Sequence record: PQ159479
DNA: 50,260 nucleotides
Source of the DNA: Escherichia phage Henu4_2
Strand: one strand, 5' to 3'
The notes beneath the pieces were generated by a model. It saw nothing but the letters and a program-made list of their open reading frames with translations, was not told the DNA's origin and did not search any database. The position numbers were made by a program, and so were the translations under genes. How positions within the stretch are numbered: the first letter of the stretch is position 1; each line of letters opens with the position of its first letter. This document shows positions 38,582-47,609 of the stretch, one piece after another.

Positions 38582-39319
38582 ATGGCTAAGGATTTTCAGG
38601 ACAAAGCAACCATTGATACTTTTGAGCCGGAAATGGATTTTCATGAATTGCAACACGGAAGATATTCAGATATTGCGCTGCGTTCAGGTGGTCATTATCA
38701 GCCAGTTAGAGAAAACACGTTTTTGAAGGTTAGCGGCAACCGTTATGCAGGAAGTAAAACGCCGGACGTTGTGCGCGATTTGTGGGAAACGCCAGATGAA
38801 ATTGTTGATTATCTTGCTGAACGTTACGGCAAATATGATCTTGATGCAGCCGCAACAGAAGATAATAAAAAATGCGATAAGTTTTACAGCAAAGAAACAA
38901 ACTGTTTAAAGCGTTGGTGGGGTAGCAATAAGCATGTTTGGCTTAATCCGCCATACAGCAATCCAGATCCGTTTGTGTTAAAAGCAATTGAGCAGATGGA
39001 ACACGGAAACCAGATTGATATTTTACTTCCGGCTGACAACTCAACCGCATGGTTTAGCGATGCACAAAAACACGCGGCGGAAATTATCTGGATCACTGGC
39101 GAAACATGGGAAGAAGAAGGAAAACAATATTCCCGCACTGGTCGAGTGTCGTTTATTTCTGGCATGACAGGTGAGCAAGTTAGTGGAAACAATAAAGGAA
39201 GCGTGATTTTTATCATGCGCCAACTGAAAGAAGGTGAGCAACAACAAACTCATTATGTGCCAATTAGTGAAATTTGCCCTTCTGTTAAGAACAAACGCAC
39301 AAAAGCGCGGAGTATTTAA
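38582..39319 (+). CDS. dam: DNA N6-adenine methyltransferase (Dam-like)
   Basis: catalytic NPPY motif in WLNPPYSNP. Confidence 0.8.
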   Translation: MAKDFQDKATIDTFEPEMDFHELQHGRYSDIALRSGGHYQPVRENTFLKVSGNRYAGSKTPDVVRDLWETPDEIVDYLAERYGKYDLDAAATEDNKKCDKFYSKETNCLKRWWGSNKHVWLNPPYSNPDPFVLKAIEQMEHGNQIDILLPADNSTAWFSDAQKHAAEIIWITGETWEEEGKQYSRTGRVSFISGMTGEQVSGNNKGSVIFIMRQLKEGEQQQTHYVPISEICPSVKNKRTKARSI

Positions 39320-43007: not shown

Positions 43008-44588
43008 TTACCCCATTAACGCAGGATTGACATAAACAAATTTACCAACGCTGCAAACATAATTCTTTTCTTCAAGCATTGGCAATAATTGTTCTTCAAT
43101 TCGTTTCATAACGCCTGATTGACCTGTAAACGGCTTAACCTTACGCGCACTTTCATATATCGCTCTTGCATTGGTAACGCCTTTATTTTGACGTGAGATC
43201 TTAATGATGATTTCAATTAGCTTGCTCATTTCGGCATCATCGCCAGCGTGACCTGAAGCATTCGCGGCGTTAATATATGTTTTGCTTAATTCGCTGAACA
43301 TCACCAAAGCCTCTTGCATTGTCTCAACTTCAATTTCTCGCGACTTTTGCGGCGTACCGTTTGGATTAAACCAATTGCGGATCGTGTGCAATACTGACGC
43401 AATGCGGATAACTTGCTTATCCATTTTACCCAAAGCACCACGCAACATTGTATGTGAATATTTCCCGCCGTCTGCTAAATCTGGCTCTAATTGCTGTCGA
43501 GCAATATTAAGGACACGCATTGCAGAACGTGACGGCTTCAATACAACATTTTGTTCAGTCATGATGTTATGAATCAACTGGAAATATTGCGCCTTTAATT
43601 CTTTATCAACTGGCGTGTAATCAAGATCACCATTTTCATCAATAAATACACGCTCGCCTAACATTGTTTTTTCACGCACAAGCAAGAAACGTTCACTAAC
43701 ACCGATACCCCGCGCCCCTGCATCCATGATCCCTTTTATCGTTTCATCCTGGGCAATTACGCTCATGCAGCCCAACGCAACAAAACTCATATTGTTTTCA
43801 GAATTGGCGCGAGCTATTGAAACGTGTCCTGCGTCCCATGCTTTTAGAACCAATTCGCTGTTAGTCTTGCGATCACTATTAGCGTAAGTCAATCCGAGTA
43901 AGCTGTTGATGCTTGTTGCTTCATCGGAAATGACAGCAAAGTTACCCTGGCGATTGTTGATCTTTGCTAACCCTTCCGGCGTGGTGTCTGATACCGGAAA
44001 AACGATATCGCACATTTTTTCTAACTTTTCCTCTAATTCCTCCTTTTCCTCAAACAGCGCCGCTAACTCAGTGCCGGAACGTTCAGCTTTCAATTCCTTT
44101 TCAACGCCTTTTAATTTCGCTGCGATCTTCTTTCGCTCTTTCTTGCGTTGTTCGTTGATGCGCTCAACTTCACAGACCATTGGCGCAATAGCCAGGCTGT
44201 TGATTGCTGATTTACCAGTTGATGGCGGCTGACTGGTTACAACATAAAGCGCAGTTGGTTGTTCAGTGCCGTGGTACTCAACTTGGAAGCGTCCAACCAT
44301 AGCGGCGGAAACGCAACCAATGAAATGCATATAGGCCGATGATTCAGGAAATTGAACAGATTGCGCAATGCTACGTGACAGTTTACCCACAACATCAACA
44401 TCATTACCCAAAGAGATCACAGGATAACGGTCATTAGCGCCGTTGATATCCTTTACAGGTTCCCAAAAGCTGGACGATTGGCGGTAGCCGTTCGACTGAA
44501 TAGCAACGCGAAGCGGCGATGTTCCCTGCGATTCTGCAATGGCTATAACTTGTTGAGGTGTCAATTTGTTGGTGTCAAAGTCAAACAT
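43008..44588 (-). CDS. DUF3987-like P-loop protein (replication-associated, function unknown)
   Basis: Walker-A-like SQPPSTGKSA; DTTPEGL, SDEA, KAWDAGHVSIAR, IAQDE, RFLLV match my recollection of the DUF3987 consensus. Confidence 0.55.
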   Translation of the reverse strand: MFDFDTNKLTPQQVIAIAESQGTSPLRVAIQSNGYRQSSSFWEPVKDINGANDRYPVISLGNDVDVVGKLSRSIAQSVQFPESSAYMHFIGCVSAAMVGRFQVEYHGTEQPTALYVVTSQPPSTGKSAINSLAIAPMVCEVERINEQRKKERKKIAAKLKGVEKELKAERSGTELAALFEEKEELEEKLEKMCDIVFPVSDTTPEGLAKINNRQGNFAVISDEATSINSLLGLTYANSDRKTNSELVLKAWDAGHVSIARANSENNMSFVALGCMSVIAQDETIKGIMDAGARGIGVSERFLLVREKTMLGERVFIDENGDLDYTPVDKELKAQYFQLIHNIMTEQNVVLKPSRSAMRVLNIARQQLEPDLADGGKYSHTMLRGALGKMDKQVIRIASVLHTIRNWFNPNGTPQKSREIEVETMQEALVMFSELSKTYINAANASGHAGDDAEMSKLIEIIIKISRQNKGVTNARAIYESARKVKPFTGQSGVMKRIEEQLLPMLEEKNYVCSVGKFVYVNPALMG

Positions 44589-44603
44589 CTAAAAATCTCC
44601 TTC

Positions 44604-44659
44604 TTGTTGCCGCTAATTATAACGGCAACATTCTACAGCCTTTTAGCAATTCGTGCTAT
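44604..44659 (-). promoter_or_regulatory. conserved early element (minus), stem GTTGCCG/CGGCAAC with TATAAT in loop
   Basis: minus-strand ATAGCACGAATTGCTAAAA then hairpin with TATAAT; RBS AAGGAG. Confidence 0.5.
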
Positions 44660-44904
44660 TTGATCGGCTCAACCCTGGCTAATAACTTTCCGTCTATAAT
44701 GCTATGACATTCAAGAGTTTTAGGATCGAATGCAAGCGAACGATGGAACGTATGACCAATCAGCAAATATGAATGCTTATCCCTGATGCGATAGACCGTT
44801 TCACCTTCCTTTAATGAGGATATCGCACTGAAAACAACCTTGTAACGGTATTTTTGCATGGCCTCAGAACGGTGAGGAATGTAATCTTTTTCCGGTAAAC
44901 TCAT
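44656..44904 (-). CDS. hypothetical protein
   Basis: 82-aa ORF; stop TAG inside the motif. Confidence 0.45.
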   Translation of the reverse strand: MSLPEKDYIPHRSEAMQKYRYKVVFSAISSLKEGETVYRIRDKHSYLLIGHTFHRSLAFDPKTLECHSIIDGKLLARVEPIK

Positions 44905-45263
44905 GAGTATTTGGCCTCAAACAGATAAGCACCGCCAGCGGCTGAAAATCCAACTTCTTCCCGATACAGCGTGAAACGGTCGCCGTTTTCGTCGAAAACG
45001 TATCCAGCAACAGCACCTAACACGCGGCCTTGTTCGATCTGGTAACGCTTATCGGCTTTGAAAGTTTTCTTAATCTGCATGGAGTGGTTTACCCATGTGC
45101 ATTTAATGGTTTTGGTCTTAACATTTCGGAATGTTAATCCGGTTAAGTTGGCGTGAATCCATTTCCCATCTAACTTAACGAAAGTATCATCATTTTCGTC
45201 TACCCGCGCTTTGTATAGGCGGTTATCAGATCCGATAAGTTTGATTGATTTGAATTTAGCCAT
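44901..45263 (-). CDS. hypothetical protein
   Basis: 120-aa ORF, RBS AAAGGAGATAA. Confidence 0.45.
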   Translation of the reverse strand: MAKFKSIKLIGSDNRLYKARVDENDDTFVKLDGKWIHANLTGLTFRNVKTKTIKCTWVNHSMQIKKTFKADKRYQIEQGRVLGAVAGYVFDENGDRFTLYREEVGFSAAGGAYLFEAKYS

Positions 45264-45294
45264 TTGATTTATCTCCTTTTGTTTTCGTTGAAAG

Positions 45295-45339
45295 CATTAT
45301 GCCGGATACGTGATCCGGCGTTTTAACAAAAAGTGCTAT
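45295..45339 (-). promoter_or_regulatory. conserved early element (minus), stem GCCGGAT/ATCCGGC, CATAAT
   Basis: minus-strand AATAGCACTTTTTGTTAAAAC + hairpin + CATAAT + TTCAACGAAAAC leader. Confidence 0.5.
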
Positions 45340-46031
45340 TTCTGATTTGCCAGGCATACAGCAAGCGCAAAGCCGCGCGGAGTGAGTGAGCGGATCAGCT
45401 TTGTTCGCTTAGACTTACCGCCTAGCTTTTGCCAGCCTGGATTGTTGTTCCCTGTTGGCAATACTGCGTTTGTATCCGGCATTACAAAACCGTTACCCGT
45501 CCAAAGGCAAGTTTTTTTGGTGTACGCATCGCGAGCGGGAATGATTTCAGGAAAGTGAGGATGTTTATCATCTTCCGGCAACAGACCGCCAAATGCGCAA
45601 GGATGAAAGATAAAATCAGGTTGCCTCCACATCGACGACAGGACGCTAACAGGATTCTCGATCATGTATGGAACGTTAAACCGATCCGCAATATTGGCAG
45701 CAATCTTTGCCGTTTCAACCGCCTTTTTCTGGAAGTCTGGATCACGTTCACGCTTTGCTGCAAAGTGACGCGATCCGCTAACAGCTAAATCAGTGCATGG
45801 AGGGAATGCAATAATAAAATCTGGAGTGCCAAAGACGCGCATCATTGCGTTATGCTGGAATGATAATCCGATCCACTCATTCAAATAAACGATGTTGGGA
45901 TGAGTCACGCGCACTGATTGGTAATCACCATGATCAGCACCGTCGAAATTAAAGCACAGCACTTTGTGACCACGTTCAGCCCACGGCAACGCAGCATAAC
46001 CAGAACCATCAAATAGTGAGAAAATAAGCAT
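45336..46031 (-). CDS. putative DNA cytosine-5 methyltransferase (short form)
   Basis: motif I-like FSLFDGSGYAA, motif IV-like AFPPCTD, motif VI-like YMIENPV; ATG 46031 with RBS AAAGGA. Confidence 0.55.
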   Translation of the reverse strand: MLIFSLFDGSGYAALPWAERGHKVLCFNFDGADHGDYQSVRVTHPNIVYLNEWIGLSFQHNAMMRVFGTPDFIIAFPPCTDLAVSGSRHFAAKRERDPDFQKKAVETAKIAANIADRFNVPYMIENPVSVLSSMWRQPDFIFHPCAFGGLLPEDDKHPHFPEIIPARDAYTKKTCLWTGNGFVMPDTNAVLPTGNNNPGWQKLGGKSKRTKLIRSLTPRGFALAVCLANQK

Positions 46032-46140
46032 GTTTAAATCCTTTCTGTATGACCTTGTAAGGCGTTTTGTTTGTAGGTGTCGCAACTGTATTGGCTACGG
46101 CCTGAAATCGCGACACGACGCTAAACAGGCCGCTATTTTT

Positions 46141-46218
46141 TTACTTACAGAATGGGCATGTTGTTTTATCCCCGATTCCGCCGTGTTTTGGGCAGCAAAT
46201 TTTTTCGATAGGTGTCAT
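46141..46218 (-). CDS. zinc-ribbon mini-protein (25 aa)
   Basis: MTPIEKICCPKHGGIGDKTTCPFCK with strong RBS AAGGAG 8 nt upstream. Confidence 0.35.
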   Translation of the reverse strand: MTPIEKICCPKHGGIGDKTTCPFCK

Positions 46219-46230
46219 TTTAAATACTCC

Positions 46231-46473
46231 TTAGAATGGGAAACAACGCTTGCAAGATGGATCGAAGTTACAACCGCAATCATTGATTATTGCGTTAGGA
46301 TCAGCAAGCATCACGCTACTTTCTTGATCCATATCCATAGCGCCTAATGCGTCATCAAGCGTTATTTCAAGATAGGCAACTTTAAGCGCCCATTCTTTGT
46401 TAAGTCCAGCCGCCTCCGCTTCATGTAGGCGAGCAAAGAAAGCATCTTGAACCATATCAACCCCACTTCTCAA
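46231..46473 (-). CDS. hypothetical protein with C-terminal Cys cluster
   Basis: 80 aa ending CGCNFDPSCKRC. Confidence 0.45.
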   Translation of the reverse strand: MRSGVDMVQDAFFARLHEAEAAGLNKEWALKVAYLEITLDDALGAMDMDQESSVMLADPNAIINDCGCNFDPSCKRCFPF

Positions 46474-46678
46474 TAAACATGCTCATTTCGTCAATCATCG
46501 CGTAAGCATCACTTTCAGTTATTCGGCGGATTCTACCGCCTGGATGTTCGCCAACAGCGTAACCAGTTTTTACGCGGGTAATCGTTAACTGATGGAATCC
46601 AGAAGCGCGATCCATTTTCAAAACTACTTTCCCGTGAGCTTTGACAATGTTCATGATGGATTCAGTTTTCAGTTTCAT
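46457..46678 (-). CDS. hypothetical protein
   Basis: 73-aa ORF after motif copy; RBS TGGAGAA. Confidence 0.45.
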   Translation of the reverse strand: MKLKTESIMNIVKAHGKVVLKMDRASGFHQLTITRVKTGYAVGEHPGGRIRRITESDAYAMIDEMSMFIEKWG

Positions 46679-46709
46679 TTTTGATTCTCCATTTTGTTTG
46701 TGTGAAAGT

Positions 46710-46757
46710 ATGATACCAATCAGAGCGATATCGTTTTTAGCAATTCGTGCTGTTTAC
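46710..46757 (-). promoter_or_regulatory. conserved early element (minus), TGgTATCAT
   Basis: minus-strand ACAGCACGAATTGCTAAAAA then extended -10 TGGTATCAT. Confidence 0.5.
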
Positions 46758-46904
46758 GGCGATAAACGGATAGCCTGTTAAATCTGCATTTCTATAACGC
46801 GCAGACCTAACCCAACAGCCGCCTTTGCTCATAATTAAAGCGTTTTTATGACGCAGGTTTACGCGGTAAATTCTTCCGGTTTTTATGTTTTTGAAATATG
46901 TCAT
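46737..46904 (-). CDS. small hypothetical protein (55 aa)
   Basis: ATGA-coupled to upstream gene; stop inside motif; below the ORF-track cut-off. Confidence 0.35.
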   Translation of the reverse strand: MTYFKNIKTGRIYRVNLRHKNALIMSKGGCWVRSARYRNADLTGYPFIAVNSTNC

Positions 46905-47098
46905 AGATACGTGATCCTATCTTCTGTTACCCACTCGCAACGCTGGCGCTCAATTGTTTTGCCATATTTTTTATTAATATGATCGCTGTTGTAATCTTCA
47001 AGAGCTTGCAACGCATTTGCTAAATTATTAGCAGTTGCAATAAGTGTTTTATCATTCGCGTCAATTCTGCTAACCAAATAACACGCATAACGGATCAT
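46901..47098 (-). CDS. hypothetical protein
   Basis: 65-aa ORF. Confidence 0.4.
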   Translation of the reverse strand: MIRYACYLVSRIDANDKTLIATANNLANALQALEDYNSDHINKKYGKTIERQRCEWVTEDRITYL

Positions 47099-47328
47099 AA
47101 TTTAACCTCATGATATTCTATAAATTCTTGCACATATGCGCATTCTCGCGGAGACTCCTGGCCTTTTAACACTTCACAGCCACCATTAAACAGATAGCAG
47201 TGCTGGCAAAGGTTGCCGCCTACGTTTTCCTCAGCGATCTGAATTCCGGTACACAAACCGCCACCAAACCTATGAGGAAAATCGTAAGCCTGGCAGCGGC
47301 ACGTTGCTTGATGCCGCTTACGTTTCAT
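47095..47328 (-). CDS. Cys-rich (putative zinc-binding) protein
   Basis: 77 aa with CRC...C..C...C..C...C pattern. Confidence 0.45.
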   Translation of the reverse strand: MKRKRHQATCRCQAYDFPHRFGGGLCTGIQIAEENVGGNLCQHCYLFNGGCEVLKGQESPRECAYVQEFIEYHEVKL

Positions 47329-47609
47329 TAAATGTTCTCACTGATAAACTGGATAACCTGGCGAAGATGTTTTTCATCTTTAATGAATGCTGGCAATTCT
47401 TCCATAACTTCTTTTTTCAGATAAATGTTTGCATTCCATGTGAATGATCCATCACCATTTACGCGGTAAGAACAAAGCCATTCGCAATCATTATCCACTT
47501 CCCAAATGCACAGCGTTTCAAATTCTTCAAACTTGTTGTAACCCGTTTCAATGCTTAACTCAATGCCACGTTTGCCAGCGAAATTAGTAGTTGTTTTTGA
47601 TACCATCAT
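47328..47609 (-). CDS. hypothetical protein
   Basis: 93-aa ORF after motif copy; RBS CCGGAGAA. Confidence 0.45.
   Translation of the reverse strand: MMVSKTTTNFAGKRGIELSIETGYNKFEEFETLCIWEVDNDCEWLCSYRVNGDGSFTWNANIYLKKEVMEELPAFIKDEKHLRQVIQFISENI

Follow-up and report, generated by a model that had tools for sequence, protein, structure and literature searches.

The window analysed here is the whole 50,260-nt genome of Escherichia phage Henu4_2 (PQ159479), a genome of the Tlsvirus type. On its right arm lies a minus-strand coding sequence of 231 aa (45336..46031, including the stop codon), which was assigned as a C5-type methyltransferase from the ORF, PHROG 757, its homologues and its predicted fold. 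The ATG at 46031 that opens this reading sits inside a longer minus-strand ORF (45336..46085), in which an alternative in-frame TTG start at 46085 would yield a protein of 249 aa by adding the stretch 46032-46085. A Shine-Dalgarno motif read from the sequence, AAGGA (46039..46043, minus strand), is located 7 nt upstream of the ATG. Moreover, two family alignments, one with 70 and one with 79 diverse homologues, start at the methionine of the 231-aa form, with M1 conserved at a level of at least 90%. The shorter form is favoured over the TTG start because of this ribosome-binding site and because the family alignments begin at that methionine. The gene of about 230 aa that a sequence-only reading had placed at 45336-46031 is therefore a real one. 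Among the relatives, upstream starts have been annotated in Citrobacter phage BlueShadow (249 aa) and phage Tls (259 aa); judging from the sequences, these 249-259-aa forms in public records are probably over-extended start-codon annotations.

The right arm is read leftward throughout this region, with the methyltransferase gene followed by two small ORFs and then, downstream, by the gene for a DUF3987 protein of 526 aa (43008-44588, minus strand; PF13148, E 5.9e-43) in the same leftward operon. In Tls and Bas06, the counterparts of the DUF3987 protein carry the label 'putative ATPase' or 'putative helicase'. The block consisting of a gene at the DUF3987 position, the two small ORFs and dcm is kept in Henu4_2, Tls and KarlJaspers/Bas06; in KarlJaspers the DUF3987 position is taken by a gene of the same size that is annotated as a putative helicase. 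The ORF directly downstream of dcm (44901-45263, minus strand) encodes 120 aa and is a neighbour of dcm in Tls and Bas06 as well. Its sole Pfam match, to PF11512 (Atu4866), stays below threshold with 18 bits where 25 are required. Between the dcm stop codon at 45336 and the beginning of this next leftward ORF at 45263 are 72 bp that contain a perfect 7-bp inverted repeat, GCCGGAT-acgtg-ATCCGGC (45301-45319), followed by GTTTT on the plus strand. A promoter and terminator scan of positions 44500-47500 returned fewer sites than shuffled controls and none attributable to the methyltransferase gene, and the inverted repeat was absent from the terminator output for this interval. Elsewhere in the window, on the plus strand, lies a Dam-type N6-adenine methyltransferase gene (38582..39319). 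The earlier assignment of this gene as a Dam-like methylase with an NPPY motif is upheld by its ORF, its match to PF05869 (E 6.8e-63) and the NPPY motif itself.

Close relatives of the 231-aa protein are found at the same genome position in several phages, annotated either as longer proteins or as hypothetical. An ORF of Salmonella phage phSE-2, deposited as 'hypothetical', is 100% identical, the 'putative DNA cytosine methyltransferase' of BlueShadow is 99% identical, and the 'dcm' product of phage Tls (AAR09305.1; Drexlerviridae, Tempevirinae, Tlsvirus) is 86.6% identical. The Dcm of KarlJaspers/Bas06 (QXV82308.1) shares 65% identity from end to end (E 3e-116) and is encoded by a 711-bp gene of genome MZ501090 annotated 'Dcm-like C5 cytosine methyltransferase'. 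The two proteins are similar in length (231 and 236 aa) and in gene neighbourhood, and both phages belong to the Drexlerviridae (Tempevirinae) and carry a Dam-like gene in addition. They differ, however, in 35% of their residues and in the genus of their phages (Hanrivervirus for KarlJaspers, Tlsvirus-type for Henu4_2), and the record that is 100% identical to the Henu4_2 protein comes from a Salmonella phage.

This compact family is widely distributed. Residues 1-230 match PHROG 757, 'DNA methyltransferase' (E 1.5e-86), and members were found in 1533 of 50,697 phage records, covering T1-like phages, Dhillonvirus, Webervirus-type Klebsiella phages, rV5-like phages, phapecoctaviruses and some myoviruses of ~165 kb. 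Clustering at 90% identity divides the family into 5404 groups, and at 50% identity (E<=0.001) it has 1231 representatives. Compact enzymes that are 40-59% identical occur in large myoviruses with genomes of 136-172 kb, for example OR167178 MIZ2, MK573636 PHB13, rV5-like phages and phapecoctaviruses; a C5-methyltransferase would serve no purpose there if the cytosine of these phages were modified. The same module is also found as one domain of bigger phage proteins of ~400 to 1400 aa (BFVD A0A6J5SE15, A0A6J5NPY6), and one larger phage protein that contains it is annotated Helicase/UvrB N-terminal; the family is thus not always a stand-alone enzyme.

Standard domain libraries do not recognise the protein. 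Pfam and NCBIfam scans of the 231-aa sequence gave no match even at E<=10, and neither the single protein nor a 70-sequence profile picked up a methyltransferase in PDB sequence searches. An HMM search for the C5 DNA_methylase family, which the sequence-only reading had proposed as a check and whose failure it counted towards a refutation, therefore fails for the protein itself, and the link to PF00145 shows by way of its close homologues and of profile and fold comparison. Among the 79 aligned family members, 11 match PF00145 at E<=1. Three homologues of ~60% identity pass its gathering score (24.7-28.5 bits, cut-off 22) with matches confined to profile positions 4-94 of 324, that is, to motifs I-IV; Bas06 Dcm scores 11.1 bits, below the cut-off of 22. 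When the family profile was compared by hhalign with the catalytic domain of DNMT3A (a query sequence identical to PDB 5yx2_A), it aligned over motifs I-IV with a probability of 76% (E 2.3e-5). Against M.HhaI alone, 22 columns around the PC were aligned, and the comparison with a 120-member HhaI-family alignment, a narrow one with at least 71% identity among its members, was insignificant (probability 0.3). Since the M.HhaI family profile gave no significant match, the compact family is, as far as sequence can tell, nearer to the DNMT3 type than to the classical bacterial type.

The relationship to DNMT3A and DNMT3B is claimed no closer than that of a superfamily. Identity to the mammalian catalytic domains is 14-18%, with the C-terminal half aligning at low confidence only. 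The Henu4_2 protein has neither the PWWP and ADD domains nor the partner subunits of the mammalian enzymes, and carries an extra insertion of 30 residues between strands 6 and 7.

Structure prediction points to the same class. An AF2 model built from the family alignment, with the Bas06 row left out, reached a pLDDT of 95 and a pTM of 0.91, and a Foldseek search of this model against the PDB gave C5-methyltransferases for all of the best 50 matches, with Dnmt2 matches ranking below DNA methyltransferases. The predicted protein begins directly at strand 1, its strands and helices succeed one another as in class-I methyltransferases, and on this model the three-dimensional fold of a C5-methyltransferase is present. 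Taken together with the PHROG 757 match, the 65% identity to the Bas06/K42 enzyme and the conserved catalytic residues, these comparisons substantiate the earlier proposal of a second methyltransferase, of the C5 type, besides Dam.

The three motifs that the sequence-only reading had picked out (FxGxG-like, PPC and ENP/V) are present as FDGSG, PPC and ENP, in the order expected of a C5 enzyme. Motif I, F7-D-G-S-G11 (45999..46013, minus strand; family consensus SLFDxTG), is the putative SAM-binding loop after strand 1 and pairs with 'SLFDGIATG' of DNMT3A in the hhalign comparison. Motif IV, P77-P78-C79 (45795..45803, minus strand), contains the predicted catalytic cysteine, pairs with PCNDLS of DNMT3A and corresponds to C82 of the Dcm of phage K42. 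Motif VI, E125-N126-P127 (45651..45659, minus strand), is the equivalent of ENV, with E125 corresponding to E128 of K42 Dcm; it is in register with FENV of DNMT3A and MENV of HhaI in an extended hhalign alignment of low confidence. Each of C79, E125, N126 and P127 is retained by 90% or more of the diverse homologues in the family alignment, which argues that the FDGSG/PPC/ENP series is no chance match.

What sets the protein apart from classical bacterial C5 enzymes is its C-terminal half. E. coli Dcm is 472 aa long and possesses a target recognition domain (TRD) of 80-100 residues and clear motifs VIII-X. M.HhaI, of the PF00145 family, has 327 aa, likewise with a TRD of 80-100 residues and clear motifs VIII-X. 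In the AF2 model of the phage protein, by contrast, strand 7 (residues 174-179) is followed by a coil of ~18 residues (180-197), by helices at 198-202 and 208-215 and by a terminal helix at 219-229, and a conventional TRD, of roughly 50-100 aa or more between motifs VIII and IX, is absent. The part behind motif VIII, which normally forms the TRD, is here cut down to a short loop and small helices, and this accounts for the small size of the enzyme. The suspicion raised earlier, that so short a protein may lack a conventional TRD, thus agrees with the ~18-residue coil between strand 7 and the C-terminal helices.

Two further elements of this half are recognisable. The family alignment and the predicted secondary structure delimit an insertion of ~30 residues between strands 6 and 7 (residues 143-173; 45513..45605, minus strand), in which P144 and Y170 never vary, while D168 and K172 are conserved at a level of at least 90%. 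This insertion is a candidate DNA-contact element and may take over the DNA contacts of the TRD. Its last residues, K172-K173, stand before strand 7 in place of the RxR (QxRxR) of motif VIII. Near the C-terminus, the stretch R214-S-L-T-P-R-G-F-A-L-A-V225 (45357..45392, minus strand) follows the family consensus IRSxTPRGFAxAV, with R214, P218, G220 and A224 conserved at a level of at least 90%. From its pattern and the order of the helices it is probably the equivalent of motif X, like 'GRSWSVP' of DNMT3 and 'GNSV' of HhaI. It also resembles motif IX ('RxLTPRE'), and hhalign confidence in this part is near zero.

Experimental data on the family come from work on retron Ec86 (Eco1), first released as a preprint, since published and now cited as established. 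The phage used, K42, shares 95.4% genome identity with KarlJaspers/Bas06, and the dcm genes of the two are nearly identical. Lesions in the 711-bp 'dcm' gene were present in every K42 escaper of retron Ec86, and escape mutations were also found 9 bp upstream of its start codon. K42 Dcm triggers the defence, and its expression led to more 5mC on msDNA as determined by LC-MS, a rise that was not seen with the C82A/E128A/K175A/K176A mutant. A Dcm of the K42 type was encoded by 34 of 35 Ec86-sensitive phages. In a pairwise alignment with Bas06 Dcm, the four mutated residues of the K42 enzyme correspond to C79, E125, K172 and K173 of the Henu4_2 protein. Because of this conservation, and because of the identity to Bas06 Dcm over its whole length, the finding belongs to what is already known: the gene is an ordinary feature, a member of a compact Dcm-like family that is widespread among T1-like phages and other phages of enterobacteria.

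Very probably the gene product is a SAM-dependent DNA C5-methyltransferase of this family that is active and methylates replicating phage DNA. For the Henu4_2 protein itself we infer activity from homology, from the conserved catalytic residues and from the predicted fold. After infection, the substrates of the enzyme would be the cytosines of replicating phage DNA and of whatever other DNA is accessible. By the standard Cys-addition mechanism, Cys79 would attack C6 of a flipped-out cytosine, Glu125 would protonate N3 and the methyl group would move from SAM to C5. The benefit would presumably be shelter from 5mC-sensitive restriction enzymes such as those of the EcoRII type, and the price would be vulnerability to defences that sense methylation, such as retron Ec86. 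McrBC-type enzymes are further defences of this kind. Dual methylation may broaden the evasion of restriction, as the sequence-only reading had supposed; among Drexlerviridae, however, resistance to restriction did not follow in any simple way from the methyltransferase genes carried, according to the BASEL study.

Two readings that deny DNA methylation as the activity were weighed against this one. The protein could be a weak or inactive methyltransferase-like protein with a role in DNA binding or elsewhere, or an enzyme acting mainly on RNA in the manner of Dnmt2. This is very unlikely, given that the catalytic cysteine, the ENP and the region of the SAM loop are strongly conserved across more than 1000 diverged representatives and that the K42 homologue raised 5mC on DNA in a manner dependent on its catalytic residues; an action on RNA is further opposed by the lower scores of the Dnmt2 matches. 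Even less probable is an enzyme with the C5-methyltransferase fold whose transferred group is not methyl, for example a cytosine C5-carboxymethyltransferase using Cx-SAM, which CmoA of an enterobacterial host supplies. The model for such an activity is CmoX, a phage DNA cytosine C5-carboxymethyltransferase (PDB 8yf3), which is recognised by SPPC, by an arginine at the position of HhaI Asn304 and by adjacent genes for CmoA, the Cx-SAM synthase, or for the ligase CmoY. The Henu4_2 protein has FPPC instead of SPPC, and PPC occurs in ordinary C5-methyltransferases too. R214 may fall at the Asn304 position, in a part where hhalign aligns with no confidence, and DNMT3A, a methyltransferase, likewise has an arginine there (GRSWS). 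Neither the annotated Tls genome nor the neighbours that were scanned offered a product resembling CmoA or CmoY, or an unassigned ORF of suitable size for one, and the product measured by LC-MS after expression of the K42 homologue was 5mC. Membership of the CmoX group was rejected on the FPPC and on the lack of a CmoA- or CmoY-like gene in Tls and among the scanned neighbours.

The sequence that the enzyme methylates is a separate question, and one that concerns mechanism only. CCWGG may be proposed as the target of the Henu4_2 enzyme by analogy; in the K42 study it was taken over from the host Dcm, with mutations in the msDNA stem as its sole support. In these, changing CCTGG to AATGG, ACTGG or CATGG abolished defence. 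The literature searched held no direct determination of specificity and no methylome map for the Dcm family of T1-like phages. Over the whole 50,260-nt genome of Henu4_2, CCWGG (108 observed against 96 expected, a ratio of 1.13) and GATC (287 against 251, 1.14) are among the few short palindromes that are not avoided. Those that are avoided include CCSGG (0 observed, 16 expected), GGSCC (0 and 9.5), GGWCC (2 and 15), GGNCC (2 and 24) and RCCGGY (1 and 30). GGCC (64 and 130) and CTAG (21 and 52) are also depleted, and 22 of the 64 six-base palindromes are absent altogether, including TCCGGA (29 expected), GCGCGC, GGATCC and GGCGCC. This pattern would fit methyl protection of just GATC and CCWGG, but the host's own Dam and Dcm could explain it equally well.

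An active DNA C5-methyltransferase with a target other than CCWGG, whether shorter, relaxed or biased towards single-stranded DNA or hairpins, is a possible though doubtful alternative. The short coil in the usual place of the TRD speaks for it, as do the borrowed origin of CCWGG in the K42 work and the state of msDNA in dcm+ MG1655, where 5mC on it was scarce before expression of the phage enzyme, which was described as probably toxic. Because msDNA had so little 5mC beforehand in a host with its own Dcm, a phage specificity equal to that of the host enzyme fits poorly. Against a different target stand the loss of defence with the altered msDNA stems and the retention of CCWGG, beside a complete lack of CCSGG, in the Henu4_2 genome. 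Furthermore, sequence specificity is possible for small enzymes. A more particular version, that the compact family reads DNA unconventionally with the 143-173 insertion replacing the TRD and with a specificity unlike that of the host Dcm (relaxed, shorter, or directed at hairpins or single strands, for instance msDNA stems), is offered as speculation that we hold to be somewhat unlikely. If true, unconventional recognition would explain why retron Ec86 is fired by the phage Dcm but not by the host Dcm.

Under the favoured reading of an active DNA C5-methyltransferase, Henu4_2 is a Tlsvirus-type phage with two methyltransferases, one of the Dam type and one of the C5 type, like many Drexlerviridae, and the compact enzyme is one of a very common phage type to which Pfam and NCBIfam are blind. 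The triggering of retron Ec86 is the only experimentally shown consequence of the compact Dcm-like family. Since it is a homologue of this protein that triggers the retron, the gene is a known liability and is relevant to the prediction of host range.
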